A DNA stretch of 64,000 nucleotides from Vampirovibrio sp. (GTDB lineage Bacteria; Cyanobacteriota; Vampirovibrionia; Vampirovibrionales; JAJTHC01), in assembly GCA_024998755.1 (NCBI GenBank), contig JACEUU010000002.1:76783-140782 (forward strand). The letters are read 5' to 3'. Position 1 is the first letter of the stretch. The number at the start of each line of letters is the position of its first letter. A program made the position numbers and the translations under genes. The notes beneath the pieces were generated by a model. The model saw only the letters and a program-made list of their open reading frames with translations. It had not been told where the DNA came from and did no database searches. Of the stretch, positions 1 to 25,537 are shown one piece after another.

Positions 1-2271
1 AGAGGCTTAAAAGAGTTTGCTATTTTTGGAACAGAGGGATTATCAGCATCCTACGCCAAGGAGGTATACTTTTCCAAAAATAGCTGTGGCGACTCATCGT
101 ATACTCCTTGGTTGGCTCTGATCGTCCCTACTATTCGTGACAATGTAGAGATCAGCAGTTGGGCAGATTTTGATATTTGTACTCCTTTGTATAATAATAA
201 TGTTCATGGTGTTTATCCAAGTGTCAATAACGATAAATGGTGGAAATCAGACCCTAAAAATACTACCGTTACTGTTATAGAAGATGTACCTTTCAATATT
301 AAAAAAGTTGGTCTGTTTCCCTTAAAGAAGCTCACAATTAAAGGTAAGCTTGAGAGGCAAAGCTCAAACAAGTTCTATGTTAACAGTTTAACGGCACTTA
401 CGAATATCCCTGATGTTCAAGTTTCTTGGACTTATCCTTTACCCAATAATATACTTCCGAATTCTTGGGCTATTTGGTCAAGCAATCCCTATTATCTTGA
501 CAAAGCGAAACCGTTCAAGATTTTTGATAATGATTATGGAACCGTTCCTATAATTCAAGTTAATTCAAGGTACTTTCTAGAGTTAAATAATAGTACAGAA
601 CCAAATCCAGTAAACCCTAGTTCCTGGAACGCACAACCTTGTGAATTGATTGCGGATGATGGTTCTTTTGATTCTCCTAATGAAAGCGTTACCTGTAATT
701 TTATTTCCACTGGTCTTGAACCTTGGCGTTATTCCGATGATTATACTCAGTATAACATTGAATTTAAGGAACAGGGCTTAACTAAAAAGAAATTCCTTTC
801 TCAACGCAACACTTTCATACGATCTGACTGGGCAACTGTACCTGTTAAAAAGTATGTTAACCCCACACCTATTGCTGGGGCTGATACCATTAACGCTGAC
901 AGTTTTTCCAGACCTTATGTTATTAGAGATAATAGTGAAAACTATCTCTTCTACAACCTGATTAAAACCAACGGGCTTAATCGAACTAATCAACTTTACA
1001 GTTTTAATCCAACCAATCAACAAGTAGTCGCTGGTCCGGTGGTTAATTTGTATTGGGGCGATGTTGCAACACTTCGGTTAGCACAGGGTAAACGCGTCCT
1101 TTCTTATTCACCTCATAATAAGGTAGCGGTTACGGGTAATACCAGTACATATGGTAATGTTTATGCTTGGTATTATGATCGTGTAGATCAACCAGTGGCT
1201 ACGCTTAAAACAGGGGGTGTTGGTTTTAATTCTGCACAAGCTAACAATGCCAATGCAAACTACATTGCAGACCCTACAAGTACCTTAAATGCTTATCAAA
1301 CGAATCTAACTGCGGTTACTTCAGAAGGGTCTACGTTATACACGTTAAATTCAGTTACTGGTACATTAACACGGTATGTAACGCGCCTTGGTCAATATAA
1401 CCATGTACGCCAAAGTGAAACCAAACTAACTAGTGGCATTGTTAATGCAAGTAGTGCTATAGCGGTTTCACCTATGGACGATGGTCTTTATTTGCTAGAT
1501 GCGGCGAATAGAACCGTTCGGTATTACGCCGATAGACGGATGGGAGACGTAGCAACAACTACTTCTGTGGCAACCTTGGGGGCTAAGTTAGGGTCTACTG
1601 CGGGTGCTTATGCCAAAATTTTATCGAACAATATGAGAGACTTTGAAGCATTGTTAGATACTAGTTCGAATCCACCGCCCTTTGATGACGTTGCCTCTTT
1701 CGGTGAATTGCAGGCTTGTATCACTAGCTGTACAAATCCAAGTGTGAATGAAGCTGCACAATATTTTGTTAATAATAAGGCTACAGTGTTTACACCAATG
1801 GAATCGATTTCTGACCCAGTACCCAATGATATATTTCATGTGAACGACTTAAATGCTTATGTAACTCAGCAAAATACAGGGGGGCTATCCGCAACACAAA
1901 CAACGGTAACCATTCCAACACAAGGTGTTGCACGTTCATTTACAACACCACAAGCAACTACGCCTACAGGGTTAGCGGTTTCAAAAGCAACAGGGCTGGT
2001 TTATGTGTTAGATTCTACTCTCGGCACAGTTACCGTGGGTACAACGGTTACTAGAACCTTAAATATTCACGTTTACAATCCAAATGGAACTTTCATTGAA
2101 ACCTTGGCATTAAATGTTTCCGACGACCAATTTGTCAATGATGATGATCGATTAGTGCCACAAAGCGGACAAATTATGCGTTTGACTTTAGATGAGAAAA
2201 AATCTCAGTTTTATGTTCACGTTGAAAATAATGGTAGAACTTACCAGTTTGGTGTAGACAGACAAATTTAA
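1..2271 (+). CDS. Large hypothetical secreted or surface protein, 5'-truncated by the window. Repeated Thr/Val/Tyr-rich beta-strand motifs (LYTLNSVTGTL, GLYLLDAANRTVRYY, LVYVLDSTLGTVTV) suggest an NHL/beta-propeller-like fold.
   Basis: The frame is open from nt 1 with no in-frame stop, so the TTG at 112 is unlikely to be the true start. Stop at 2269-2271. No family confidently recognised. Confidence 0.5.
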   Translation, partial: RGLKEFAIFGTEGLSASYAKEVYFSKNSCGDSSYTPWLALIVPTIRDNVEISSWADFDICTPLYNNNVHGVYPSVNNDKWWKSDPKNTTVTVIEDVPFNIKKVGLFPLKKLTIKGKLERQSSNKFYVNSLTALTNIPDVQVSWTYPLPNNILPNSWAIWSSNPYYLDKAKPFKIFDNDYGTVPIIQVNSRYFLELNNSTEPNPVNPSSWNAQPCELIADDGSFDSPNESVTCNFISTGLEPWRYSDDYTQYNIEFKEQGLTKKKFLSQRNTFIRSDWATVPVKKYVNPTPIAGADTINADSFSRPYVIRDNSENYLFYNLIKTNGLNRTNQLYSFNPTNQQVVAGPVVNLYWGDVATLRLAQGKRVLSYSPHNKVAVTGNTSTYGNVYAWYYDRVDQPVATLKTGGVGFNSAQANNANANYIADPTSTLNAYQTNLTAVTSEGSTLYTLNSVTGTLTRYVTRLGQYNHVRQSETKLTSGIVNASSAIAVSPMDDGLYLLDAANRTVRYYADRRMGDVATTTSVATLGAKLGSTAGAYAKILSNNMRDFEALLDTSSNPPPFDDVASFGELQACITSCTNPSVNEAAQYFVNNKATVFTPMESISDPVPNDIFHVNDLNAYVTQQNTGGLSATQTTVTIPTQGVARSFTTPQATTPTGLAVSKATGLVYVLDSTLGTVTVGTTVTRTLNIHVYNPNGTFIETLALNVSDDQFVNDDDRLVPQSGQIMRLTLDEKKSQFYVHVENNGRTYQFGVDRQI

Positions 2272-3596: not shown

Positions 3597-4397
3597 TTGA
3601 CCAATAGAACCACCAGACAATCTAACATTTCAACACCCCAGCAGCCTCAATTTACCGGTGCATCAGAACCACTTCAAGCCATAATTTTAGCAGGAGGTAA
3701 GGGGTCTAGGCTACAACCGCTAACCCAACATTGCCCAAAACCATTAATGCCTATTGAAGGTAAACCCATTTTGGAATGGTTATTATTGCAGCTAAAAGAC
3801 CAAGGGTTTTTAACGGTTACCTTAGCGTTAGGGCATCAAGCCCAGCAAATTCAAGATTATTTTGGGTCTGGCGAACGCTTAGGCATGACTATTGCGTATT
3901 GTTTTGAAACTGAACCGTTGGGTACGGCAGGTCCTTTAAGATTAGTTGAAAAATTACCCGAAAACTTTTTGGTGCTGAATGCAGATATTTTAACCACGCT
4001 TAATTTTAAAGCCTTAATGGTAGAACATATGGTGAATGGTCAGGTTGCTACGGTGGCGGTGCACCGGCATTTGGTGAAAAGTGAATTTGGGGTGGTGCAT
4101 TTCTCAGAAAATGATAATGAAATCATTCAATTTGAAGAAAAGCCAACACATACTCAATTTGTAAACATGGGGGTTTATGCTTTTAATAAGCAGGTATTAT
4201 CTGCGTTACCTAACAGAAAATGTTGTGGTATTGATGATTTGTTGAAAGGGTTACAAGCCCAGGCTATTGCCATTCATGCTTTTCCTTTTGAAGGGTATTG
4301 GTTGGATATTGGTAGGCCCACCGCTTACCAGCAAGCACAAATAGATGCTCCGACTATTTTGCCTGTGCATCAGGAAATGGCGATTGCCGTTAGTTAA
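3597..4397 (+). CDS. Sugar-1-phosphate nucleotidyltransferase (MurU/HddC/GlmU-N-like NTP-transferase fold).
   Basis: IILAGGKGSRLQPLT...PKPLMPIEGKPIL is the signature G-loop of NTP_transferase. The start is uncertain (TTG at 3597); there is no C-terminal hexapeptide domain. Confidence 0.55.
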   Translation: MTNRTTRQSNISTPQQPQFTGASEPLQAIILAGGKGSRLQPLTQHCPKPLMPIEGKPILEWLLLQLKDQGFLTVTLALGHQAQQIQDYFGSGERLGMTIAYCFETEPLGTAGPLRLVEKLPENFLVLNADILTTLNFKALMVEHMVNGQVATVAVHRHLVKSEFGVVHFSENDNEIIQFEEKPTHTQFVNMGVYAFNKQVLSALPNRKCCGIDDLLKGLQAQAIAIHAFPFEGYWLDIGRPTAYQQAQIDAPTILPVHQEMAIAVS

Positions 4398-4728: not shown

Positions 4729-6702
4729 TTATGCGTGGGTTGAAAACGTGGTGCTAGCTGAATGCTGTTTGGCAACAGGATTAATAAATAACTTGCCATT
4801 TCTGGGGTATAACGGAATTTTTCCTAACCGCAATAATGAAGGTAATTGGTTAGGCACAGGCTCATTGGGTTGTTTTTCTTGCAATTTTTTCTTAATGGCT
4901 TCAGCCACAATTTCGTTTTTAATAGCTTCTTTATCTACATTGGGCTTTAAGCGTTCAGGTATTGCTTCTCCAGAAAAATGACTAGCAGCCCAGTGTTGTA
5001 ATTTAGGCGAAGCCACCCCTAAAATGGCATAACTAACCACTAATGAACCGACTAAAGCAAAGGCTTTAGCCCCCATGCCTTTGTTAATTATTTTCGTTAC
5101 TTGGGCTTGGTCTTCGTACTGTGCCAGTTGGTTTAGTTTATGGAAGACGCCTTCCACTGTTTTGAAATTATCTAAAATGCCTTGTTTTGGGTTATTAAAC
5201 CCAAAGAAGGTTTTCACATGGTTGCTAAAACCTTTGACCGGCTCGTTTTTAATATCTGCCGCTTGGTTGAGGGGCTTTGAAATATCTTGCCCTAAAATTC
5301 TTTTTTCGTGGAACGGATTCAGATGCTCTAGCTTAAAGTTTTCATGCCAAACGGGTAATGTGCCATTGGCTATCAGTGTATCTATAATGACGTTTTCGCC
5401 TTTTTTGTAGGGCGTTTTTGCCATGTAGGTTTGAATGGCTTCTGCCACTTGGTCTTTTTTATTTAGCAGTACTTTAGCGTAATAGTTTTCATTGGGTTCA
5501 ATGGTGAATTTAGCGTGTTCTAACACATCTTGAGTCATACCCTTTGCCCATGAGGGTATTGGGGTGTTAATAGCATTTTGTTGAACCCTTTTCTCCGCTT
5601 CAGCACTTTGCAAGTGGGCTAAATCACCTAACTTAAGAGCATTGAGGCTTTCAATGTATGATTTTCTGAAATTTTGATTGGGCATGCCATAGTTTTGCCG
5701 TAAACTGGCAACGGCATCAAAGGAAAGTTCGCTAATGGGGGTGGCTTTCCCAAAGGTTTGCGATTCAAAAATGGTCTTTTTTAGGGCGTCATTCAGTAGC
5801 TGAGACCCAAAGTACACCATAAACACCAATATGGCTTCGTTTACTGCCCAACTTAATCTATCATAATTGCCTTCACTTTTCGTTAGTCTTCCGCCTGTAA
5901 TAAAGCCATCTACACCTAAATTGGTGAATGCAGGGTGGGTGTTTAAGAAGTCTACCGCTGCAATGGCATTGGTGGCTAAATCGGCTCCTTTTCTAGGGGC
6001 TGGGTTAGCGGTTGTGTTCTTCTTCTCTTCTTTTGTTGCTTTGGTGGTGTAGGTATTCGGTTCTTCGCTGGCATCTAAGGCAAACAGGCTAGGTTGCCAC
6101 TGTTTGGCTATATGTTGATAGAGTGCTTCTCGCTTGGCGTCGGACTTATTATGCGTCCGATGGTGTGCAAATTCCTGTAGTTTAACGCCAACCAAGTAGG
6201 AAGGTAAAATAACGGAAAGACCAATACCCACGGCTTGGGCAATTTTTCTGGTACTGGGGGGTATTTTGTCAAAACTTTTGCCGAGTGCTTCAAACCGTTG
6301 ATTGAGTTGCTTTTGCAGAACGGGTATATCTGCAAATTTTGATTGGCTGGTTTGTTTGATTGTTTGAAGCAAGCTTTTTTGTTCGGGCGAACCATCGGCA
6401 TTAATAAAGGGAAGCACGTTGGTTTGGTGTAATGCCCCTTCATACAGGTGTTTTAGTAAGAAAGAACCACCGCCCCAAATAAAGGCAGTACCCCACATAA
6501 TCAAGCTCATTTCCTGACCAAATTCAGGCGATTTTTGCTTGGCTTCGCTAATCATCCCAAAGTTTTGAAGGCTATCACGCACAATAAGCCCTGCTGGGTG
6601 GTTGGGGTTATCTAACGCAGCGGCAGCAGAAATAGCAGGCTTTGAAAAAGCCCAGTTTGCTAGTTGTGTTCCGCTGTTTGCTAGTGTAGAAACCATGTTC
6701 AT
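4729..6702 (-). CDS. Large hypothetical protein (~657 aa), possibly membrane-associated or an effector-like protein.
   Basis: Long ORF. The probable start is the ATGAACATG at 6702; the ORF track extends to 6765. No recognisable catalytic motifs. Confidence 0.45.
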   Translation of the reverse strand: MNMVSTLANSGTQLANWAFSKPAISAAAALDNPNHPAGLIVRDSLQNFGMISEAKQKSPEFGQEMSLIMWGTAFIWGGGSFLLKHLYEGALHQTNVLPFINADGSPEQKSLLQTIKQTSQSKFADIPVLQKQLNQRFEALGKSFDKIPPSTRKIAQAVGIGLSVILPSYLVGVKLQEFAHHRTHNKSDAKREALYQHIAKQWQPSLFALDASEEPNTYTTKATKEEKKNTTANPAPRKGADLATNAIAAVDFLNTHPAFTNLGVDGFITGGRLTKSEGNYDRLSWAVNEAILVFMVYFGSQLLNDALKKTIFESQTFGKATPISELSFDAVASLRQNYGMPNQNFRKSYIESLNALKLGDLAHLQSAEAEKRVQQNAINTPIPSWAKGMTQDVLEHAKFTIEPNENYYAKVLLNKKDQVAEAIQTYMAKTPYKKGENVIIDTLIANGTLPVWHENFKLEHLNPFHEKRILGQDISKPLNQAADIKNEPVKGFSNHVKTFFGFNNPKQGILDNFKTVEGVFHKLNQLAQYEDQAQVTKIINKGMGAKAFALVGSLVVSYAILGVASPKLQHWAASHFSGEAIPERLKPNVDKEAIKNEIVAEAIKKKLQEKQPNEPVPNQLPSLLRLGKIPLYPRNGKLFINPVAKQHSASTTFSTHA

Positions 6703-7234
6703 TGTGGATAAAATAACCTTGTTACAGTTGAAAAAGCTTAGACGATGATAGAACAACCCCCCCATTTAATCCCCTTGCTTTATGCTGGTTCTTCAGTAAC
6801 TGAAAAGAACCGGCATCAAAAAGAAAGGGTTCGGGGAAACCGCTACCTAGCTTTGTAACTAAACACTTGGATATGAAGAAATTAAGAGATGAAAAATAGG
6901 TGGTAACAGCAATGGGTGATTGATTATACTGAGAAAATAGGTGGTTAGAAAAGCCGTAGATCAATGAAAAGTGGGTTATTGAATTGCTGTTAGCGTCGTT
7001 TTTTTACTGGTTAATTCCCTATACTCTAGCATTGTTTGAAGCTAGGTAGGGCATTGTTCGTCGTTTTGATTGGATATTATTCATTAAAAAGCAAAACATA
7101 ATAAGTGAAAAACCTTCATTTGTAAAATGGTGTCTAATCGACACTTTTTAATTGTTACTTAGTAACTTACCATGCGAATAAAACGATTTCAAGCTTTTTT
7201 TGTGCTAGGCTTTTAATTAAGATTTTACCCTTTC

Positions 7235-8252: not shown

Positions 8253-9842
8253 CTAGGTGATGCTTTTTTCATAGCTGTGTAGGCTATGAACGCCCCCTTC
8301 AATGTTGGCGGCAATGCTACGCCGCTCAAACCGAAGTTCCCCACTATGCAGGGTTTCATGCAGTTGAGGTATGGATTGTATACCCAAATCTTGCAAGCCA
8401 TGCTTCATTCCCTGAATAATATAAGGCAAATACTGACGTAACGACCCTTTATCCATTACCGAACCCGTTACCCCTTGAGCCACCAAAATTTTCGATTGTT
8501 CACCAAAATACCGAACGCTAGACCCTTTGGTCATGGCTTCTTGCGAACCCATTCCTCTGTACTTCTTCAACCGAATGCCATCTTTGTAGAAGTATTCACC
8601 TGGAGCTTCAGCCGTACCAGCTAACAATGAACCCACCATCACGCAAGAGGCCCCAACGGCTAACGCCTTGGTTATTTGCCCCATGTTGGCAATACCACCA
8701 TCTGCAATAACCGGAATGCCAAACTGGCTAGCATACTTGGCTACATTATAAACGGCTGTTGCTTGCGGACGCCCAACGGCGGTTACTTCCTGCGTGGTGC
8801 AGATTGAGCCAACGCCCATGCCAACCCGTAACCCATCTACCCCAGCTTGAATTAGGTGATGAGCTTGCAGTTTGGTAACAATGTTACCGCCAATAATTTG
8901 TAATTGTGGGTGTGCTACTTTTAAGCGTTTAACCATGTTAATTTGAAAGGTGCTATCGCCTTGAGAAGAATCTATCACCAATACATCAACGCCTGCTTTC
9001 ACTAAAGCGTTGGCTCGTTCCCAGTCAGATTCTCTGGTACCAACAGCCGCCCCAACCCGAAGTCGGTCTTGGTCGTCTTTGGTGGCTTGCGGATAGTTTT
9101 GACTTTTCAGCAAATCGTTTCTTGAAATCAGTGCAACCAATTCGCCGTTGGCATTAACAATAGGTAGCTTGCCTTTTTTGCTAGCCTGCAATAAATGAAA
9201 CGCCTCACTAAGTGAAGAGCTTTCGTTGGCGGTAATAAGGTCTGTGGTCATTACTGCGTGAAGTGGGGTTTGCCTATCGGTTACAAAGTCAATATCTCTG
9301 TTAGTAACCATGCCTAGCAGTTTACCGCCCATTTTGCCTGTATCGGTAATGGGTACACTACTAAAGCCGTTGTTTTGCTTCATAATATCCATATCTGCAA
9401 TGGTATGATGAGACGTTAACACTTCAGGGTCTGTAATAAAGCCATTTTTGAAGCGTTTCACTTTGCGTACTTCAGCCACTTGTTCTTCAATGGTATTGTT
9501 ATAATGAATGAAGCCTAAGCCCCCTAGCAGAGCCATGTGTATTGCCATGGTGCTTTCAGTAACCGTATCCATAGGCGAACTTACTATAGGTATTGCCAAG
9601 GTTAGGTTGCGGGTTAATTTACTATTGAGTTTTACATCATTCACCCCAAAATCAATATGCCTTGGGTGCAGAATTAAGTCGTTATAAGTAAGCCCTTCAC
9701 CTTGGTTGAAAATGGTTTCGGCTGTGAAGCCATCGTCAAACGAAAAGGCATCGCAATGAAGCTTTTCTACAGGAAGGGCGGTATTAAAAGGGGTGTTATT
9801 AGGCATTGTGAGGGTTGGGTTTTCAGTTGAAACAAGTGGCAT
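8253..9842 (-). CDS. guaB: Inosine-5'-monophosphate dehydrogenase, eukaryote-type sequence, with CBS domains.
   Basis: Resembles animal/fungal IMPDH along its whole length (GLTYND..ILP, KVKR/KFxxGFITDP, [12 protein letters not shown]-terminus), with the catalytic GSICxT loop. The N-terminus carries ~30 extra residues; an alternative start is at 9806. Confidence 0.85.
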
Positions 9843-10040: not shown

Positions 10041-10847
10041 TTAAATGCCATTATTTTGAATAAATTTAAGTAAGTCTGGCAACGAAGCAGAGGAATTACT
10101 GGTAACATTGTAACTATTGGCTAGCCCACCGCCCAAACCTAAGGCTTGAGCCTTTAATACATCATTTACCGAAACCCCTTGTTGCTGACGCGGCTGGTTT
10201 AGCGGTTGAACTTGTATTTGCCCTGTTTGAAACGGCATATTGGTGCCCAGCGGAGACCCTGCGGGAAATTGTGCTAAGGCGGTATTATTAGCTGTATCTG
10301 CAGCGGTATAAAAGGGTAAAATACTTTGTAGCCCCATAAAATTGAGTGCTTCTGGTGGGAAGTTTGAAAAATGAGGAATAACCGTTCCGCCTTGGATGGT
10401 GTTGACTAAATCAACAGGAATGGTGAGGTTTTTACCAAAATTTGGCGAAAGTACTTCGTTAAACAGGTTGGCTGAACGCCCTAAATAATCCAAGGCATTA
10501 TCTGTACCCGCATTATACAGCTTCGGGGCGATAAGTTGTTCGGTTAAGCCTGTGTGTTCAAAGGGTTTGGTGGCGTCTTGAAGATGGTTGCCCATTTTAG
10601 TGAGCCTTACAGGTGAAAAGAACGAACTAGAGCGAAGAAAACTGCTTTCAACATCATGGGTATAATTGTTGTTAAAGGCTATTTGTTGTTGCCATTGTGG
10701 AATATTGGTTGGAATTTTGCTGTTACCACGGCTAAACGTATCTTCTAGCCCTGTTAGCCACCCCATCCGTAAATTACCGAAGCCATTGGCTCCGTTAAGC
10801 CCTGCTCCGCCTGTGCCAAACCCTAAATTACCGCCTACAATGCCCAT
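10041..10847 (-). CDS. Hypothetical Gly/Asn/Gln-rich protein.
   Basis: ORF only; low-complexity N-terminus (GGNLGFGTGGAGLNGANGFGNL). Confidence 0.35.
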   Translation of the reverse strand: MGIVGGNLGFGTGGAGLNGANGFGNLRMGWLTGLEDTFSRGNSKIPTNIPQWQQQIAFNNNYTHDVESSFLRSSSFFSPVRLTKMGNHLQDATKPFEHTGLTEQLIAPKLYNAGTDNALDYLGRSANLFNEVLSPNFGKNLTIPVDLVNTIQGGTVIPHFSNFPPEALNFMGLQSILPFYTAADTANNTALAQFPAGSPLGTNMPFQTGQIQVQPLNQPRQQQGVSVNDVLKAQALGLGGGLANSYNVTSNSSASLPDLLKFIQNNGI

Positions 10848-12468: not shown

Positions 12469-12554
12469 GAGATGGTTGGGTTTAATTCTCGGTACATTTA
12501 ACGTATACTAATAATTGCCGTATTTACTCTCTGTTGTTAGAAAAGATAATCCTT

Positions 12555-13775
12555 ATGACCACTTCTACCTTGCTTAAACCTAACACCGCTTATACCTTAA
12601 GCCAATTAGCTACCCTCATGCCAGATGCTACCGTTCGAGGCAATGCCTCGTTACAGGTTACGTCATTGGTGCACCCTCGGTTTGCTAAAACGCCGACTGA
12701 AATGATTTACATCGCCACAGAATCTGCCTTTGCTGCCTTGGAAAAAGGCGTGGCTAAAGTGGGCTTGCTTGAAGAAAGCTTACCCATTCCTGAAGCCTTG
12801 TTGCAGAATAACCAGTTGGGATTTTTGGTTGTAAAACGGGGCAAAGTAGGGCTGGCTCATGCCTTAAAAATATTTGAAAAACCGGCATTTATTACTTCAG
12901 GCATTCACCCAACGGCTCAAGTAGATGAGTCTGCAACAGTCGGTGAAAACGTTACCATCGGGGCTTTTTGCGTGGTGGGTGAAAATGCGGTTATTGGGGC
13001 GGGTAGCATTTTACATCCTCATGTGTTGGTGGGGGCTAAGGTTACCATGGGCGAAAATTGCTTGCTTCATAAGGGCGTTTTTATTGGTGATTGCTCCCAG
13101 CTGGGTAACAGGGTCATCATCCAACCCAACGCCGTTATTGGGGCAGATGGCTTTAGTTATGTAACCCCTGAGGTTGCCAAACATGAAAAATCGACCGATG
13201 AAGCTAAAACCGTTAGCGAAGTAACGGATTTGATTCGGATTAATTCCGTAGGTTGGGTCGTGCTGGAAGATGATGTCGAAGTGGGGGCTTGCACCACCAT
13301 TGACCGTGGCACCTTGGCGGAAACCCGTGTTAAAAAAGGCACTAAAATTGATAACTTGGTGATGATTGGTCATAACAATACGATTGGTAAACATTGTTTA
13401 ATTGTGTCCCAAGTGGGTTTGGCGGGTAGCTGCCATATTGGCGATGGCGTTGTTATAGCAGGGCAAGCAGGCTTGGCAGACCATTTAACTATTGGCGATA
13501 ACGCCATTATTATGGCACGCTCTGCGGTAATGAGGGATGTTGAACCTAGCCAAGTGGTGGTGGGTATGCCTGCTATGCCGACTCGTCAGTATATGGAACA
13601 AATTTTGTATATGGGTAAATTGAAAGAAATGGCGAAAGCCTTTAAATCCCTTCAAAAGGAAATGCTAGCCATGAAGGAAAAGGCCAGCCAGTTTGAAGCC
13701 TTTTTTGCCTCTGTTGCTTCGACAGATGGGGCTGACGCTGATGCAGATGACGCTGCACTGAAAAAGGGTGTTTAA
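12555..13775 (+). CDS. lpxD: UDP-3-O-acylglucosamine N-acyltransferase with an unusual ~60-aa acidic/helical C-terminal extension.
   Basis: Left-handed beta-helix hexapeptide repeats and an LpxD-like N-terminal domain. An alternative TTG start is at 12534. Confidence 0.75.
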
Positions 13776-14630
13776 ATGTCTCTGTCATCGGTTATTACTC
13801 TTTCGGGGGTTGGCTTAATTTCTGGTAAACCGGTTAGTGTTCGATTAGAACAAGGTTTGCAGGGGCAGGGTGTTCGGTTTGTGTTTGCTTCAACTGGGGC
13901 TATTTTGCCTGCTTCTGCTGATTTTATTGTGGATACTCAACGGGGCGTAACCCTCATGCACCCTGAAACCAAGCAATTGCTGTCTATTGTGGAACATTTT
14001 TTGGCTGCCGTTTCCTTCAGTGGTTTTCACGATGTTACCGCTACCATTGAAGGCGATGCCCCAGAATTGCCGTTGTTAGATGGGTCTGCGTTGCCTTGGT
14101 ATCAAGCGATTGTTTCCCAGTGGGGCAAGCCGGAACCGTCAGTTAATAAGCCACTGTATACGCTGAATAAGCCAGTTTTTATGCAGCGTTCTACCCTTAA
14201 AACGGCGATGTATGCGTTGCCATCGGATAAATTTTCTCTGACTTATACGTTGGATTATGCTCATGCGGGCTTTCAACGGGATTGGGCAACTTGGCAGGGC
14301 AGGGCGGATAGGGTGGTTTCTGTAGACCAATTGCTTTCGGCTCAAACGTTTGGGTTGGTGGCGGAATTGCCGGTTTTACAGGCGAAGGGGTTGGCTTTGG
14401 GTGTAACGTTGGAAAATACGTTGGGGTTATGTGAAGATGGGTTTGGCTATACTCGGGCGTTGAAGTTTCCGAAAGAACCATTTTTTCATAAGATGTTGGA
14501 TTTAGTGGGCGATTTTCATCTTTGTGGCTTGCCGGTGGAATGCCTTCAAATGGCGATAGTGGCGGTGAATGCGGGGCATACTAGCCATGTGGCGTTTGCC
14601 AAACAGTTGAAACAGCAGTTAGAACAATAA
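13776..14630 (+). CDS. lpxC: UDP-3-O-acyl-N-acetylglucosamine deacetylase.
   Basis: Matches E. coli LpxC motifs (TVEHxLAA, LLDGSA, HKMLDxVGD, HxSH). Its start is translationally coupled to the lpxD stop (TAAATG). Confidence 0.8.
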   Translation: MSLSSVITLSGVGLISGKPVSVRLEQGLQGQGVRFVFASTGAILPASADFIVDTQRGVTLMHPETKQLLSIVEHFLAAVSFSGFHDVTATIEGDAPELPLLDGSALPWYQAIVSQWGKPEPSVNKPLYTLNKPVFMQRSTLKTAMYALPSDKFSLTYTLDYAHAGFQRDWATWQGRADRVVSVDQLLSAQTFGLVAELPVLQAKGLALGVTLENTLGLCEDGFGYTRALKFPKEPFFHKMLDLVGDFHLCGLPVECLQMAIVAVNAGHTSHVAFAKQLKQQLEQ

Positions 14631-14941
14631 AACTTATCTAAAAATATAAAAACAAGCAATTTATTGGTATAGATTGTTTTTATTACTATGTGAGCGATAC
14701 ACACGCCGCCCACAAAAACCGCTTCCTTGCTACACAGTCTGTTTTGGGTTTACCCACCAGCCGTGGTTATCTGGTTTTTGATGAACTACTGGTCGGCACT
14801 TTTGAAGAAGCGTTTACTGGAAGACGAACGCTTTTTCATTCCTTTCTATTTCGCTACACGCCCCTGCCATTTGTTAAATTTACCTGAAAAAAGAGAGAGA
14901 GAAAAAAAGTGCCAATTTGGTCTTTGGTCTTTTTTTCCATA

Positions 14942-14978
14942 CCGTCGAAGTTGGTCGCTTCGGCGGTTTTATTTTTTG
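14942..14978 (+). terminator. Hairpin plus T-tract (repeat module B'), downstream of lpxC and abutting the purQ 3' end.
   Basis: ccgtcgaagttggtcgcttcggcggttttatttttt. Confidence 0.45.
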
Positions 14979-14982
14979 AATA

Positions 14983-15732
14983 TTATACAGCGACGGCTTG
15001 TTTTTTCGCCAAACACGCTTGGGCTAACGATTCAAACACCAATCGTCCCAGCCCTGTGCGTTGAACCGTCTCGTCTGCCCACCAGTTGCGTTCAGGGTGT
15101 GGCATTAAGCCTAGAACATTGCCGGCTTCATTACAAATACCCGCAATCCCATTAGCAGACCCATTAACTGTAGCCCCCGCCTCATACCGAAAAACCACTT
15201 GTCCGTTGCCTTCTAGTTGAGCTAGGGTTTCTTCATCGGCGGTGTAGCAGCCTTCCCCGTGTGCAATGGGGAAATCCACCAGTTGATTTTTTTGATACGC
15301 ACTGGTAAAGGGGGCTTTCACCTGCTCCACCCGAAGTTGCGTGTGTTGTTCACACAAAAATTGCTGATGATGATTTGCCACCAACGCACCGGGTAACAGA
15401 CCGCTTTCGGTTAAAACTTGAAACCCATTGCAAATGCCTAATACGGGAAAACCATTGTTGGCAAAGGCTTTAATTCTTCCCATCAGTGGCGAACGGTTTG
15501 CCATAGCACCGCACCGCAAATAATCGCCATAGCTAAACCCACCGGGAATAATTACGGCATCCACCAAGGTTTCTAACGGTTGCGGATTTTCCTCATCTTG
15601 CCAAAGAAAAACGGTAGTGGCGTTCATTACATTACGCACGGCTTCTGCACAATCTTCATCGCAATTGCTTCCTAAAAACCGAGCAATCCCGATGGTTAAA
15701 GCCTGTTTGTTGATAGTCATCATCATCATCAT
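14983..15732 (-). CDS. purQ: Phosphoribosylformylglycinamidine synthase subunit PurQ (glutaminase).
   Basis: GGFSYGDYLRCGAMA...ICNGFQ..HGEG class-I glutamine amidotransferase motifs. It starts with five consecutive ATG codons. Confidence 0.8.
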   Translation of the reverse strand: MMMMMTINKQALTIGIARFLGSNCDEDCAEAVRNVMNATTVFLWQDEENPQPLETLVDAVIIPGGFSYGDYLRCGAMANRSPLMGRIKAFANNGFPVLGICNGFQVLTESGLLPGALVANHHQQFLCEQHTQLRVEQVKAPFTSAYQKNQLVDFPIAHGEGCYTADEETLAQLEGNGQVVFRYEAGATVNGSANGIAGICNEAGNVLGLMPHPERNWWADETVQRTGLGRLVFESLAQACLAKKQAVAV

Positions 15733-15750: not shown

Positions 15751-16800
15751 CTAAGCTTGAAGCGATTCGAGTGATTCAAGGCAATAGGTTTCAATCACCA
15801 AGTTGGCTAGTAAACTATCACACATTTGTAGGCAATAGGCTTGGGCTTGCACTCGGTTGGTGGCTTGTAGCTGAATTTCAAAGCGTTTGCCTGCTTTTAC
15901 TCGTTGTACGGTGGGAAAACCGTGGGTTTGCAATGCTTCCGTAATGGCTCGGCTTTCAGGATGCAACACGTTTGGTTTGTATTGCACTTGCACGGTAGCA
16001 AAATACGTTACCAATGGCGATTCTACCGTTGCTTCTTGCGTTTTCAAATTAATAGGGCTAGCGGAAAGCACTTGGGTTAAGCGGTTTTCCACCGTGCTGT
16101 AGGCGGTGTTAATATCCCCTAAATCTAACCGAAAAACGTCTTTATCTAGCACTTGCCCTGTGGTAGCATCTCTTAAGCGGAAGTTGTCAGGGCTCATTTC
16201 ATCAGCTATTTTTAACTGACCGTTGGCGTTTAACCCCATTTCCAACTTGTAGTCTGCACAATCAATGTTGCAGGCGGAAAATAAGGCTAAAAACGAATCA
16301 TTCACGGCTAGGGCGATATGCTTAATTTGGTCGATGGTTACCCCTGTTGGCAACAAGCCGAGTGTGTTGATGGCGTCGTCTGGCAAGGCGGGGTCGTTTA
16401 ATTCGTCGCTTTTGTAGAAGAATTCGACGATGGGTTGTTTTAGTTTTTCACCTTCTTTAAACAGAGGGATTCTTTTGGGCAGGCTACCGAGGGCGATGTT
16501 GCGTACCACAATTTCGATGGGCAACATGGCGAGTGCTTCGTATACTAGCTGGTTGGGTTCAGCCCCTTTGCCAATGTAGCAGGTGGCTAGCCCTTGGGCT
16601 TCTAGGTAGGTGAAGAGTTGGGCGGTAATGTTGGCGTTCAATGCCCCTTTGCCAGCAATTTCTTCGCTTTTTTGGGCGTTGAAGGCGGTGGCTCTGTTTT
16701 TGAAGGTGGCTAATAGCTGGTTGGCTTGCCCTGCTATGGGCGATAAAATTTTGGTTTTGCCTTCACGGCTGGGGGCGGTTGTTATTGTGGCGGTGGTCAT
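15751..16800 (-). CDS. purC-purS: Fused SAICAR synthetase (PurC) and FGAM synthase PurS subunit.
   Basis: N-terminal ~250 aa align to PurC (EGKTK, MLPIEIVVRNIALGSLPKR, DYKLEMGL, SPDNFRLRD). The C-terminal ~85 aa align to PurS (VTYFATVQVQYKPNVLHPES...CDSLLANLVIETY). There is no stop between the two parts, and purQ follows directly. Confidence 0.7.
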   Translation of the reverse strand: MTTATITTAPSREGKTKILSPIAGQANQLLATFKNRATAFNAQKSEEIAGKGALNANITAQLFTYLEAQGLATCYIGKGAEPNQLVYEALAMLPIEIVVRNIALGSLPKRIPLFKEGEKLKQPIVEFFYKSDELNDPALPDDAINTLGLLPTGVTIDQIKHIALAVNDSFLALFSACNIDCADYKLEMGLNANGQLKIADEMSPDNFRLRDATTGQVLDKDVFRLDLGDINTAYSTVENRLTQVLSASPINLKTQEATVESPLVTYFATVQVQYKPNVLHPESRAITEALQTHGFPTVQRVKAGKRFEIQLQATNRVQAQAYCLQMCDSLLANLVIETYCLESLESLQA

Positions 16801-16899
16801 TGTGTGGGGTCTTTCTGTGGCGTGGCGGTTGGTTTTATCCATTGAATGCCGTTATTATACCGCTAATGTATTTTGGTTTCAATCGATGGGTTTTGGGCG

Positions 16900-17217
16900 T
16901 TGCGGTTTTCAACCGCCGTTGCCCCCTGCTTCGCACTCAACCCCGCCTTTCCCTCACCCTAGCCCTCTCCCAGAGGGAGAGGGGACGGTAAACCTAGGTA
17001 AACGGCGGGTTTTCGCCCTATGGGTGGGGCAACTAACGCTTTATTGCCCCCTCTCCCGCTGGGAGAGGGCTGGGGTGAGGGTTTTTAGAAACGGGAGGGT
17101 TTGAAACCCTTCCCTACACAATAGCCTAAATCTCGTCATGTTGAGCGTAGTCGAAACATCCCCCCAGACGCTAAGGAGATTCCTCGGCTACGCTCGGAAT
17201 GACAAAACACGCTATTT
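16900..17217. repeat. Cluster of family-2 GC-rich palindromic repeats, including the gtcatgttgagcg...gaatgacaaaacacgctattt module.
   Basis: ccctctccc-aga-gggagaggg and ccctctcccgctgggagagggctggggtgagggttttt match 2437-2478. The terminal module matches 28697-28773 and 54476-54567. Confidence 0.5.
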
Positions 17218-17314
17218 CTACTTGAATCCGCCTATAAAAATACCGATTAATCGGTTGTTATCTTTGTAATCCTAGTTAAAAGTTCTTGTAATTCTGCTTG
17301 ACGGTTCGACATTA

Positions 17315-18476
17315 TGAAGTTACGGAAAAAGGGCAAGGTAAAATAGAAGGGACATTATTCCACCTCTCATAGGATACCCCACCCCCATGACTACCTTTGC
17401 CGACATCCAAATTCAACAAGCCACCCCCACTCACAAATTCCTAGAGGAAATGAACCAAACCCTACCATGGCAACTATTTGAAACCATCCTCAAAACACAC
17501 ATCCACCACAAACCCAACGGCAGACCACCCTACAAACGCCTACTACTGCTCAAAATGAACCTCCTCAAAATATGGTTCAATCTCTCCTATGAACAAACCG
17601 AATTTCAATGCCACGACAGACTCTCCTTCCGAAAGTTTCTCGGCTTCTCCTTAGAATCCCCCATCCCTGAAGCCACGACACTCGAAAACTTCCAACACGA
17701 ACTGCAAAACACCCCAGCCCAAGAAGCCCTTTTCTTAGCCTTAGACACCTTCTTCCAAGAGAACAACCTCATTCTTAAAGAAGGCAACTTGGTAGATGCC
17801 ACCTTTATTAAAGCCAATAGCAAACAGAGAAAAAAGCCTGAAGACCAGAGCGACCCTGATGCCACTTATGGCTACAAAGGCTTTGGTTACAGTGCCACGG
17901 TTAATGTGGATGCTAAAAGCAAGTTGATTCGCAAGGTGGTTGTTACTGGTGCCAATGTGCATGACAGTCAGAGTTTACTGCCTGTACTGGTGGGCGATGA
18001 GCAGACTGTTGGTGCGGATAGTGGGTATGTGGGTAAGGAGAAGGATTTGAAGGCGTTGGGGATACAGCCGAGGATTATTAAGCGTCGTGTTCGGGGTAAG
18101 CAGCATGAACCAACGCCTGAGTTGACGGCTTCGCAGAAGCGGTTTAATGGGTTGGTTTCTAAGGTTCGGGCAAGAGTGGAGCATGTGTTTGCGGGTTGGA
18201 AGACGGTGTTTAAGAAGGTTCGTGTGTCTTGTCGTGGGTTAGTGCGTGTTTCTGCGGAGATTTTGGGCTTGGCATTTGGGTATAATTGTCGTCGGTATGG
18301 TTTTTTGGTGAGGAGGGGGGTAGGTTTTAGTGGATTCTTGTATGGTTTTTAGGTAATTATGATCCGAAAAGAGTGGAAACAAGGGGTATTGTTCTGTTTT
18401 TTGAGCATTTTTGGTTGAATTTTATTAAAAAACACTCACTACTCCCACCTGCACACCCTTATTCCGTAACTTCATT
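17315..18476 (+). mobile_element. IS5-family insertion sequence, copy 1 (~1.16 kb) with TIR tgaagttacgg...ccgtaacttca.
   Basis: The whole transposase is duplicated at 19961-21122 (inverted) and again at 63446 onward. The flanks tta|IS|tta suggest a 3-bp target-site duplication. Confidence 0.8.
17387..18352 (+). CDS. IS5-family DDE transposase (321 aa).
   Basis: DDE_Tnp_1-like organisation. Identical protein copies are at 20085-21050 (-) and 63518 onward (+). Confidence 0.8.
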   Translation: MTTFADIQIQQATPTHKFLEEMNQTLPWQLFETILKTHIHHKPNGRPPYKRLLLLKMNLLKIWFNLSYEQTEFQCHDRLSFRKFLGFSLESPIPEATTLENFQHELQNTPAQEALFLALDTFFQENNLILKEGNLVDATFIKANSKQRKKPEDQSDPDATYGYKGFGYSATVNVDAKSKLIRKVVVTGANVHDSQSLLPVLVGDEQTVGADSGYVGKEKDLKALGIQPRIIKRRVRGKQHEPTPELTASQKRFNGLVSKVRARVEHVFAGWKTVFKKVRVSCRGLVRVSAEILGLAFGYNCRRYGFLVRRGVGFSGFLYGF

Positions 18477-18499: not shown

Positions 18500-19270
18500 A
18501 TGGAAAAATATCCAGTAAAAGGCGAAGTGGATAGAATTAGTTTTTTAGATCAATTAACCACTGAAGAACTCAGTCTATTTCATCAAAATGGCACCCTGTT
18601 AACCATGAAAAAAAACGAACCGCTTGATTTGGATGACCCCAGCCACAAAAACAGTGCTTTTTTAGTAACTGAAGGCTTTGTTAAATTAACCACACTAAAC
18701 CTTGAAGGTAAAAAATTTTCGCTCAGCTTATTGCAAACAGGAGATTTGTCTGATTGGTTCTACAACCAAACTGGTGAAGAAAAGCCCTTCTTACAAACTG
18801 GGCATTGTAAGTTTTTAGAATCTATTACTGGCGTTTCGCAAGTCTTACGAATGAATGAAACGGTCTTTCAAGACCTGTTAGATAAAAAGCCCTCCCTCTA
18901 TGTAACCTTATGACGCGTAATGCAATGTAGAGTTTACACCGTGCAACGCCAATTAAGCGATGTTGTTTTTAAAGATGTACACGCCAGAATAGCCCAAACC
19001 TTGTTAGATATGGTGTTCCATTATGCGGAACTTTGCCCTTATGCCTTTGGCGTTGTAAGAGATGTTTGCCTAACCCACCAAGAAATTTCTGAATTGATTG
19101 GGGCTTCAAGACCTGTAACCTCATTAGCGTTGAACGATTTTAGTAGGGCTGATTTAGTTCATAAACACGACCGTTTTTTATGTCTGCAAAATATACCTGG
19201 TTTAGAAATAGTTGCTCAAGAAGGGTATCAAGCCCTTAAAAAAATAAGTAGTGCCTTGGTTGTTAGCTAG
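18500..19270 (+). pseudogene. Crp/Fnr-family transcriptional regulator interrupted by an in-frame TGA at 18914-18916 (cNMP-binding half 18500-18913, HTH half 18920-19270).
   Basis: The two ORFs are in the same frame, 6 nt apart. The first has the beta-roll cNMP-binding fold; the second has the Crp-type HTH (HQEISELIGASRPVTS). TGA is a genuine stop elsewhere in this window (48863-48865). Confidence 0.6.
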
Positions 19271-19960: not shown

Positions 19961-21122
19961 AATGAAGTTACGGAATAAGGGTGTGCAGGTGGGAGTAGTG
20001 AGTGTTTTTTAATAAAATTCAACCAAAAATGCTCAAAAAACAGAACAATACCCCTTGTTTCCACTCTTTTCGGATCATAATTACCTAAAAACCATACAAG
20101 AATCCACTAAAACCTACCCCCCTCCTCACCAAAAAACCATACCGACGACAATTATACCCAAATGCCAAGCCCAAAATCTCCGCAGAAACACGCACTAACC
20201 CACGACAAGACACACGAACCTTCTTAAACACCGTCTTCCAACCCGCAAACACATGCTCCACTCTTGCCCGAACCTTAGAAACCAACCCATTAAACCGCTT
20301 CTGCGAAGCCGTCAACTCAGGCGTTGGTTCATGCTGCTTACCCCGAACACGACGCTTAATAATCCTCGGCTGTATCCCCAACGCCTTCAAATCCTTCTCC
20401 TTACCCACATACCCACTATCCGCACCAACAGTCTGCTCATCGCCCACCAGTACAGGCAGTAAACTCTGACTGTCATGCACATTGGCACCAGTAACAACCA
20501 CCTTGCGAATCAACTTGCTTTTAGCATCCACATTAACCGTGGCACTGTAACCAAAGCCTTTGTAGCCATAAGTGGCATCAGGGTCGCTCTGGTCTTCAGG
20601 CTTTTTTCTCTGTTTGCTATTGGCTTTAATAAAGGTGGCATCTACCAAGTTGCCTTCTTTAAGAATGAGGTTGTTCTCTTGGAAGAAGGTGTCTAAGGCT
20701 AAGAAAAGGGCTTCTTGGGCTGGGGTGTTTTGCAGTTCGTGTTGGAAGTTTTCGAGTGTCGTGGCTTCAGGGATGGGGGATTCTAAGGAGAAGCCGAGAA
20801 ACTTTCGGAAGGAGAGTCTGTCGTGGCATTGAAATTCGGTTTGTTCATAGGAGAGATTGAACCATATTTTGAGGAGGTTCATTTTGAGCAGTAGTAGGCG
20901 TTTGTAGGGTGGTCTGCCGTTGGGTTTGTGGTGGATGTGTGTTTTGAGGATGGTTTCAAATAGTTGCCATGGTAGGGTTTGGTTCATTTCCTCTAGGAAT
21001 TTGTGAGTGGGGGTGGCTTGTTGAATTTGGATGTCGGCAAAGGTAGTCATGGGGGTGGGGTATCCTATGAGAGGTGGAATAATGTCCCTTCTATTTTACC
21101 TTGCCCTTTTTCCGTAACTTCA
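19961..21122 (-). mobile_element. IS5-family insertion sequence, copy 2, inverted relative to copy 1.
   Basis: Reverse complement of copy 1 end to end. Its flanking triplets do not match each other (ata vs ttt). Confidence 0.8.
20085..21050 (-). CDS. IS5-family DDE transposase (copy 2).
   Basis: Identical 321-aa product. Confidence 0.8.
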   Translation of the reverse strand: MTTFADIQIQQATPTHKFLEEMNQTLPWQLFETILKTHIHHKPNGRPPYKRLLLLKMNLLKIWFNLSYEQTEFQCHDRLSFRKFLGFSLESPIPEATTLENFQHELQNTPAQEALFLALDTFFQENNLILKEGNLVDATFIKANSKQRKKPEDQSDPDATYGYKGFGYSATVNVDAKSKLIRKVVVTGANVHDSQSLLPVLVGDEQTVGADSGYVGKEKDLKALGIQPRIIKRRVRGKQHEPTPELTASQKRFNGLVSKVRARVEHVFAGWKTVFKKVRVSCRGLVRVSAEILGLAFGYNCRRYGFLVRRGVGFSGFLYGF

Positions 21123-21138
21123 TATAAGGAACTCAATG

Positions 21139-24361: not shown

Positions 24362-25537
24362 TTATTTGCCAAATAGCGAAATCGAAGTGGCTTCACCGCC
24401 GTTCAGCTTAACAAGAAATTCGTGAAGTTCATTCATTAATTGAGCCGTTTCTGGCTCAATTGAAAAATGATTGTCTCTACAATCTACAAAACTTTCAATT
24501 CGCCCTTCTATTGACGGGTTTTTTTTAATGAACTGCTTTTCTTCCTCTGTGAATAATGAGGTTCGAGTTTCATATTGATGAATGGCTTCCTTGTATATTT
24601 TTAGTTCACGCACAGCAAAAGTTATTTGATTTGGTTCTACCGATTTGAGGTTAGGTAAGTTGCTTACTTCTTCTAAAACTTCACAAGTTTCTCTTAACAA
24701 CACTTGCAAAATAAGTGGATTTACTTTTTCCTTTTCTGATAAGGATTGAATCAACAACAACAGGGGTTCGCAAGGCTTGGTAGGTGCGTCTGGATAGAGA
24801 TTTCTTGTTAGGGTTTCTCTCTGTTCATGTTTTGCTTTGATTTCAGCTAAAGTTTTTTCAATTTTAGGTACTATTTCTTTATTTTTAGACATATAAGCTT
24901 CAATAAAACCTTCTTTTCCTCCTCGTATAAAGTTAATGCTAATTTGGTGTTCTGCTTCTTTTCTAGCATTAAATTGAATACGATTCATAGCATTACCAAT
25001 ATAATTTGCAAACACCATGAGTTTATCCATTTTTTCATCTAACTGATTTATTTGATGGGACTGTAAACTAGATTGCTTATATAAAAAAAAGAGATCGCTT
25101 TTCGCCTCCAGTAACAATCGTCGCATCTCGGAAAGTCCAGACTCCAAATCTTCGCCATTCGTTCTGTTTTTGAGTTGCTTTTCTAATCTATCCAACTTTT
25201 TTTCCATCTGGGCTAGTGCCGTCTGCACTTCGTGCAACGCTCCCTTGTTTGCATGGTTCATTTTTGAATAAAGTAAACCCACCCCAAAAACAGCACACAA
25301 ACTAGCAATAAAGCCCATGGTAGCCAAAACAACAGACGTTTTATCTGCTACCGGCACTTCCCTAATAACAACCTTCGGTGGCACGGATGGCTTTTCAGAA
25401 GATTTTTTCTCAAAGCTATCGACTACTTCAATCGGGTTGTCTTTTCCCGCATCTCGTGGGCTTGCCAGTTTCTTCCCCTGCCCAAGCGGAGGATAAGAAT
25501 TGCTGAAGGTTAAAGCGGTAGGCACTATTGTCATCAT
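24362..25537 (-). CDS. Hypothetical membrane-anchored coiled-coil protein.
   Basis: One transmembrane helix (VVLATMGFIASLCAVFGVGLLY) followed by long heptad-rich helical sequence. Confidence 0.4.
   Translation of the reverse strand: MMTIVPTALTFSNSYPPLGQGKKLASPRDAGKDNPIEVVDSFEKKSSEKPSVPPKVVIREVPVADKTSVVLATMGFIASLCAVFGVGLLYSKMNHANKGALHEVQTALAQMEKKLDRLEKQLKNRTNGEDLESGLSEMRRLLLEAKSDLFFLYKQSSLQSHQINQLDEKMDKLMVFANYIGNAMNRIQFNARKEAEHQISINFIRGGKEGFIEAYMSKNKEIVPKIEKTLAEIKAKHEQRETLTRNLYPDAPTKPCEPLLLLIQSLSEKEKVNPLILQVLLRETCEVLEEVSNLPNLKSVEPNQITFAVRELKIYKEAIHQYETRTSLFTEEEKQFIKKNPSIEGRIESFVDCRDNHFSIEPETAQLMNELHEFLVKLNGGEATSISLFGK

Follow-up and report, generated by a model that had tools for sequence, protein, structure and literature searches.

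In a 64,000-nucleotide (nt) stretch of Vampirovibrio sp. DNA (contig JACEUU010000002.1), hereafter called the window, the genes for two proteins of purine biosynthesis, PurC and PurS, are joined into a single open reading frame (ORF). PurC, or SAICAR (phosphoribosylaminoimidazole-succinocarboxamide) synthetase, converts carboxyaminoimidazole ribonucleotide (CAIR), aspartate and ATP to SAICAR, and bacterial PurC is typically a homodimer in solved structures. PurS is non-catalytic and is needed, together with small PurL and PurQ, for the synthesis of formylglycinamidine ribonucleotide (FGAM) (PMC3261824, PMC10912719). The PurS:PurL:PurQ stoichiometry is 2:1:1 (PMC10912719, citing Hoskins 2004; PMC3261824). 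Which form of PurS is relevant physiologically remains under debate (PMC3261824). A first-pass annotation of this DNA had claimed one uninterrupted ORF with a full SAICAR synthetase followed by a full PurS, and the ORF list, Pfam and NCBIfam all bear this out. The gene has the following parts:

15751..16842, minus strand: purC-purS fused ORF, 363 amino acids (aa) from the first ATG, stop codon TAG at 15751-15753, two Pfam domains in one frame
16081..16767, minus strand: PurC (SAICAR synthetase) domain, aa 26-254, PF01259
16006..16080, minus strand: inter-domain linker, aa 255-279 (LTQVLSASPINLKTQEATVESPLVT), 25 aa, between the two domains
15772..16005, minus strand: PurS domain, aa 280-357, PF02700 and TIGR00302
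16854..16882, minus strand: sigma-70-like promoter match TTGAAA-17-TATAAT, 11/12, from a consensus scan (pattern match only)

Two start codons are available to the gene. The second in-frame ATG, at 16800, lies 42 nt inside the longer ORF and gives a protein of 349 aa; this is the start used by NCBI. The boundary at 16800 given by the first-pass annotation (15751-16800) thus coincides with the second ATG, but the gene lies on the minus strand and may begin 42 nt further upstream. Counted from the promoter-like match, the leader would measure about 5 nt to the ATG at 16842 and about 47 nt to that at 16800. No riboswitch or other RNA leader was found upstream with Rfam: at the gathering threshold, tRNA-His is the only hit in the window. 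The NCBI protein MCS6266268.1 (349 aa, from a Vampirovibrio sp. metagenome-assembled genome (MAG), 696-kb contig) is 100% identical to aa 15-363 of the window protein, and further members of the 90% cluster of the latter share 93-99.7% identity. The window thus derives from that organism or from one almost identical to it. Neither the 363-aa nor the 349-aa form was found by exact look-up in the contig index.

The PurC half matches Pfam SAICAR_synt PF01259 over nearly the whole profile (positions 3-232 of 233; E 7.5e-58, 196.5 bits against a cutoff of 20). The stricter NCBIfam equivalog for PurC, TIGR00081, gives 164.5 bits, below its cutoff of 189.9. The half aligns end to end with the solved PurCs 2ywv, 2yzl, 3u54 and 4fe2, whose chains stop a few residues past window residue ~255, and a Foldseek comparison of the modelled structure places it at a template modelling (TM) score of 0.93 and a root mean square deviation (rmsd) of 1.4 A to 4o7n, and at TM 0.92 to 2ywv. 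The motifs EGKTK (the EGK-K loop), VVRN, SPDNFRLRD and LDKDVFR line up with the same motifs in the four aligned PurCs; we take the EGK-K, VVRN, SPD-FR and DKD-FR motifs to be those that bind nucleotide and substrate in PurC structures. Judged by its sequence, the window PurC is divergent yet complete. No match to PurE/AIRC, the aminoimidazole ribonucleotide (AIR) carboxylase, was found in the ORF with Pfam, and chains of PAICS, the animal PurC-PurE fusion, match the PurC half only.

The PurS half is likewise nearly full-length, matching PF02700 at aa 282-356 (profile 2-76 of 77; E 3.8e-21, 75.5 bits against a cutoff of 22.2). The NCBIfam PurS models span aa 280-357; TIGR00302 passes with 65.3 bits against a cutoff of 39, and NF004630 reaches 73.2 bits, slightly under its cutoff of 75. 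In the Foldseek comparison the half resembles the PurS structures 2yx5 and 2cuw (TM 0.86-0.90, rmsd 1.4-1.7 A) and also matches 3d54_B, which is PurS in the T. maritima PurLQS complex. Unlike a free PurS of ~80-100 aa, the half forms the C-terminal domain of a 349- or 363-aa protein. Pfam detects only SAICAR_synt and PurS in the ORF, and neither an AIRS/AIRS_C synthetase nor a glutaminase domain.

Both halves are conserved in an alignment of 61 fused proteins which, immediate relatives excepted, are 43-53% identical to the window protein. The four PurC motifs named above are invariant throughout, and so are the PurS positions P295, E296, A333, L345, N347 and E351. Because these residues stay fixed at such low overall identity, both halves appear to be under purifying selection. 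The linker, by contrast with them, is unconserved: it is 13-35 aa long (median 17), rich in A, T, Q, S and P, and in frame in all of the homologues.

The AlphaFold2 model built from the same alignment reached a mean predicted local distance difference test (pLDDT) of 92.5 and a predicted TM score (pTM) of 0.88. The linker is modelled as ordered and packed, with pLDDT ~94 and no exposed loop, which suggests that the two domains are held in a defined packing rather than on a loose tether. No solved chain found by Foldseek covers both domains. These properties of the linker bear on whether PurS could be made or used separately, either from an internal promoter and start in the linker or through post-translational cleavage. 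A promoter-like TTGAAA-16-TAGAAT (10/12) does lie in the linker at 16047..16020, with the TTG codon 277 just downstream, and a variable linker of such composition would suit this explanation. Both hexamers are, however, gone in a Melainabacteria relative that is 81% identical (TTAAAA and CTAGCA), and the 6 such promoters counted in the region are near the 3.7 +/- 1.9 expected from shuffling. Methionine occurs in the linker in only 6 of the 61 homologues, and the packed linker carries no conserved cleavage motif. We therefore regard a separate PurS as very improbable.

Relatives of the window protein were sought among 5.8 billion proteins, which gave 351 matches, and domain architecture was read for the best 120 clusters. 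Both PF01259 and PF02700 are present in 118 of these, in proteins of 313-401 aa with 44-94% identity to the window protein, so that the search for fused orthologues proposed by the first-pass annotation was successful. Named members come from Melainabacteria, Vampirovibrionales, Vampirovibrio sp., "Cyanobacteria bacterium" and one MAG labelled Oculatellaceae. Vampirovibrionales, or "Candidatus Melainabacteria", are the non-photosynthetic sister group of cyanobacteria. The closest locus in a GTDB genome, that of the Melainabacteria MAG from Lac Pavin mentioned above for its lost hexamers (L001), has the same single ORF. Among 80 genome loci it is the only fused one: purC and purS are adjacent but separate in 38, kept apart by a stop codon, a frame change or both, and purC has no adjacent purS in 41. 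Apparent fusions in other phyla, seen as tblastn matches that run over both domains, resolved into adjacent separate genes by the same analysis of frames and stops. The fusion had been called unusual, which holds across bacteria and archaea (38 of 39 other adjacent loci are separate) but not within its own clade, where 118 of the 120 best clusters are fused.

This distribution also decides whether the fusion is an artefact, that is, whether separate purC and purS only appear joined because a sequencing or assembly error dropped a stop codon or changed the frame. The window probably derives from a metagenome-assembled genome, and in many bacteria only a very short gap lies between the two neighbouring genes, which in some cases share a frame, so that one error could mimic a fusion. 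No stop separates the SAICAR_synt and PurS domains in the ORF, and the open in-frame junction recurs in independent assemblies at 100, 99.7, 96, 94, 80, 69 and 44-53% identity, found in the same 118 clusters. Since the junction persists over such a range of divergence, a stop or frameshift at this point is contradicted and the fusion in the window is not a sequencing error. In addition, the linker varies in length yet always stays in frame, and the rarity of methionine in it means that nothing of a purS start codon survives at the PurS boundary. The probability of an artefact is practically negligible.

The locus thus carries a real, conserved and clade-typical fusion of two known purine-pathway proteins, undescribed as such although its sequences are already public. 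Fused homologues are present in GenBank, IMG and UniRef, named PurC in some entries and PurS in others. Several were named "PurS" alone by the Prokaryotic Genome Annotation Pipeline (PGAP), probably because the PurC equivalog misses its cutoff and the PurS equivalog passes. As a consequence of such one-sided names, metabolic reconstructions of Melainabacteria/Vampirovibrionia can falsely miss purS or purC and report an incomplete purine pathway. Full-text searches of the literature turned up no account of a PurC-PurS fusion. A review of archaeal purine-pathway fusions lists PurN-PurH1, PurE-PurE', CofG-PurC, mdPurL and the eukaryotic PurC-PurE, and PurC-PurS is not among them (PMC3261824). The fusion is a useful marker of the clade and a clean, small case of what is likely a fusion by loss of a stop codon; nothing in it overturns current understanding.

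The genes that follow the fused ORF are these:

14983..15732, minus strand: purQ, glutaminase subunit of FGAM synthetase, NCBIfam NF002957, 285.5 bits against a cutoff of 212
14941..14977, plus strand: terminator-like GC hairpin with T-run in the convergent gap between lpxC and purQ, from a consensus scan (pattern match only)
13776..14630, plus strand: lpxC, convergent with purQ
12534..13775, plus strand: lpxD, convergent with purQ

As had been claimed, purQ comes next: the NCBIfam PurQ match begins 18 nt downstream of the fused ORF, the spacer holds an AGGA Shine-Dalgarno-like motif, and the GICNGFQ and HPE motifs are present in the translation. Five ATG codons in a row (MMMMM, 15718-15732, minus strand) open the gene, and its exact start is uncertain. 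The further claims that lpxC and lpxD lie next on the other strand and that purL is not adjacent proved equally correct. A tblastn search with six small-PurL ORFs from other pur operons gave no match anywhere in the 64 kb, and the large ORFs of the window belong to other Pfam families or to none. The same arrangement, with purQ directly after the fused gene and purL not adjacent, was found at every other fused locus of the clade whose context was read (L081, L084 and L085). The only other purine-related gene seen near purCS-purQ is guaB (IMP dehydrogenase), at 8253-9842 on the minus strand.

Unfused relatives throw light on the origin of the fusion. A 7-kb metagenome contig (L083) has an unfused purC, whose product (P0092) is 55% identical to the window PurC, with purS and purQ after it. 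The purC and purS of this contig lie in one frame, separated at 3779-3787 by TAA-CCC-ATG (...QKDS*PMSKATLTTYKVAV...), and the tail of PurC, the TAA, CCC and ATG triplets and the PurS N-terminus match the window linker in position and length. Because the two genes are in frame, the fused and the split state could be interconverted by a single base change in the stop codon. The free PurS of this contig finds 38 of its 40 top matches among fused PurS domains and has the same HPES loop after strand 1 as the window protein.

The unfused P0092 was used as query so that the ranking would rest on PurC alone. Its best matches are nine unfused PurCs of 235-238 aa, labelled Vampirovibrio or Vampirovibrionales, and more than 100 fused proteins come next, before any other lineage. 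In two genomic contexts (L086, in the 2.04-Mb genome CP050876.1, and L087), the unfused purC stands alone, with neither purS nor purQ nearby. A neighbour-joining tree of the PurC domain (83 sequences, 231 columns, 100 bootstraps) unites fused and unfused Vampirovibrionia-type PurCs against all outgroups in 100 of 100 replicates. Within this group the unfused PurCs are monophyletic in 91 replicates and nested in the radiation of fused ones in 99, whereas a clade of fused proteins only was never recovered (0/100).

One early fusion followed by one fission is likely the most parsimonious history. The purC stop codon would have been lost once, early in a lineage of the Vampirovibrionia/Melainabacteria type, within an in-frame purC-purS-purQ operon, and the fused gene would since have been retained under purifying selection. 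One sub-lineage would later have split the gene again, with L083 as an intermediate, and the separated genes would have been dispersed afterwards. Its TAA-CCC-ATG would then be an apparent case of fission caught in the act. With the polarity reversed, the unfused forms at L083, L086 and L087 would be ancestral and several fusions would have taken place within the clade. The event can evidently be repeated, as at least one independent fusion exists elsewhere (described below), and the tree was built by one method with limited outgroups. Nevertheless, the nesting of the unfused PurCs and the absence of a fused-only clade would require many parallel fusions, and the free PurS of L083 carries the derived xPES form of the loop and is nearest to fused PurS domains. 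We consider the reversed polarity unlikely.

The independent case was met in a search with the PurS domain only over 1.84 billion cluster representatives, which returned mainly free PurS of 78-120 aa and a few proteins of ~346-369 aa. One protein of 347 aa (P0142; 6001-7044 at L088/L089) contains both domains with much more canonical scores (PurC 259 bits, PurS 102 bits). It shares with the window protein the domain order, a similar size and purQ directly next to it. Its PurC falls outside the Vampirovibrionia-type clade, with nearest relatives that are ~50% identical and belong to a variety of phyla; the PurS loop reads DPQG, and the ~35-aa linker is unrelated to that of the window. On account of these differences in PurC clade, loop and linker, the PurC-PurS fusion has arisen at least twice, and the origin of P0142 is separate from that in the window. 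Seven member sequences are known from several samples, on contigs of up to 322 kb, in a high-GC lineage. At L088 the operon is complete, purB-purCS-purQ-purL-purF-purM-purN with 4-nt gene overlaps, and its PurL (776 aa) is of the small type; the fused architecture thus coexists with small PurL, which is adjacent in this lineage but not in the window.

Giant proteins with PAS repeats and fn3 repeats ranked at the top of the same search (P0141, 3417 aa; P0146, 2771 aa); they owe this to summed spurious matches and hold no PurS arrays. Among the cluster representatives (P0151, P0243, P0274, P0213 and P0232) there is also a protein of 189 aa in which two PurS domains stand in tandem, and other PurS of this set have ~60-140 extra N- or C-terminal residues with no Pfam match.

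We propose, with a probability of roughly 0.8, that purCS is a functional bifunctional gene that stems from one old fusion and in which PurC is covalently joined to a working PurS of FGAM synthetase. The protein would have the role of SAICAR synthetase and also that of PurS. Its PurS domain would pair with PurQ, encoded directly downstream, and with a small PurL encoded elsewhere. As PurC is expected to dimerize, a PurC-mediated dimer would supply exactly the two PurS domains required per PurL-PurQ pair, and the resulting FGAM-synthetase complex would bear two tethered PurC domains. The fusion would also provide PurC and PurS in a fixed 1:1 ratio and keep them together. The analysis shows the continuity of the ORF, the identity, completeness and folds of both domains, their conservation, the phyletic pattern and the gene context; both activities, the formation of the complex, its stoichiometry and any kinetic benefit are inferred. 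Direct substrate channelling is not expected, because the PurC and FGAM-synthetase steps are non-consecutive.

An alternative is that the PurS domain is non-functional or has been re-purposed, for example as a dimerization or regulatory module of PurC, and that the true PurS is either supplied by another gene or not needed. In favour of this, the loop after strand 1 differs from the canonical one: xPES is found in ~100 of 124 PurS domains of the fused clade, in place of the DPQG or DPEG of ~103 of 140 free PurS. The fused PurS domain also scores lower than free PurS (75 bits against ~100-113), and no purL is nearby. Against this, the PurS residues have stayed invariant over a deep radiation and the fold is intact. 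PurQ, which depends on PurS and small PurL, is encoded directly downstream at L081, L084 and L085 as well. Finally, the free PurS of L083 keeps HPES within a purC-purS-purQ cluster, which argues for a working PurS variant. A re-purposed domain is accordingly improbable.

Several points nevertheless weigh against a functional bifunctional gene of single origin. Both halves are somewhat divergent, the PurC half falling below the TIGR00081 cutoff and the PurS half carrying HPES where DPQG or DPEG is canonical. No purL was found in the window, so that the small PurL of this genome is an assumption. In the model PurC and PurS are packed in a fixed way, which might not be sterically compatible with PurS dimerization and with the binding of PurL and PurQ. 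With respect to history, the tree is a neighbour-joining tree only, and its outgroups, taken from a biased pattern search, contained neither photosynthetic cyanobacteria (Cyanobacteriia) nor Sericytochromatia. The in-frame split state is known from the single contig L083, where a sequencing error is possible.

A bolder proposal is that the covalent link, having arisen at least twice, mirrors a real coupling, physical as well as functional, of SAICAR synthetase with the FGAM-synthetase complex. On this view (PurC-PurS)2-PurL-PurQ would constitute a minimal bacterial "purinosome", and the PurC dimer would act as a template for the PurS dimer and thereby govern assembly or flux. This is speculative and, in our estimate, rather unlikely. 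If it were true, a non-covalent contact between PurC and PurS might also occur where purC and purS are merely adjacent. In either case the fused protein offers a natural construct for questions about the association of PurC with FGAM synthetase and about PurS dimerization.

Comparison with known systems shows which features are shared. With the three-subunit FGAM synthetase of Bacillus, Thermotoga and archaea, (PurS)2-smPurL-PurQ, whose genes are ordered purC-purS-purQ-purL, the window has in common the fold and family of PurS and the position of purQ directly downstream, and its order purC, purS, purQ is common to 38 other genome loci. It differs in that PurS is fused to PurC instead of being a free protein of ~80 aa, in that purL is not adjacent and in the HPES loop. 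A PurS-like module was likewise absorbed by gene fusion in lgPurL of Gram-negative bacteria and eukaryotes and in mdPurL of some methanogens (PMC3261824). There, however, it was joined to its own partner PurL, whereas in the window it is joined to PurC, an enzyme of a different, non-consecutive step. In PAICS, which is among the fold matches of the PurC half, a SAICAR synthetase domain is similarly joined to a purine-pathway protein, but the partner in the window is PurS, a non-catalytic scaffold subunit placed C-terminal to PurC, and the AIR carboxylase domain is missing. Other purine-pathway fusions available for comparison are GART, PurH, PurN-PurH1 of Halobacteria and CofG-PurC of M. hungatei (catalogued in PMC3261824).

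Several other features of the window were noted. Four ORFs have no Pfam family at E <= 1e-5: 112-2271 (plus strand), 4729-6765 (minus), 24362-25537 (minus) and 10041-10847 (minus), of 719, 678, 391 and 268 aa, respectively. A 42-nt inverted repeat at 16951-16992 and 17040-17081, 88% complementary and of the type CCCTCTCCC..GGGAGAGGG, overlaps an ARAGORN call of "tRNA-Ser(gct)" (101 nt, 17019-17119), which Rfam does not return at the gathering threshold. This call is probably false, the sequence being an intergenic palindromic repeat.

A pair of insertion sequences (ISs) arranged like a composite transposon begins some 470 nt upstream of the fused ORF. The two copies, at 17313-18476 and 19961-21124, are 1164 nt each, 100% identical and inverted, and flank a segment of 1484 nt; each encodes a 321-aa transposase of the DDE_Tnp_1/DUF772 type. 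Their perfect identity could reflect either very recent transposition or a collapse in assembly. Between the copies lies a gene for a Crp-family regulator (18500-19270, plus strand), which an in-frame TGA (18911-18913) apparently divides into an ORF of 137 aa with no Pfam match and one of 116 aa with HTH_Crp_2 (E 3e-10). This gene may be a pseudogene or a candidate for read-through, and presents the opposite case to the purC-purS junction.

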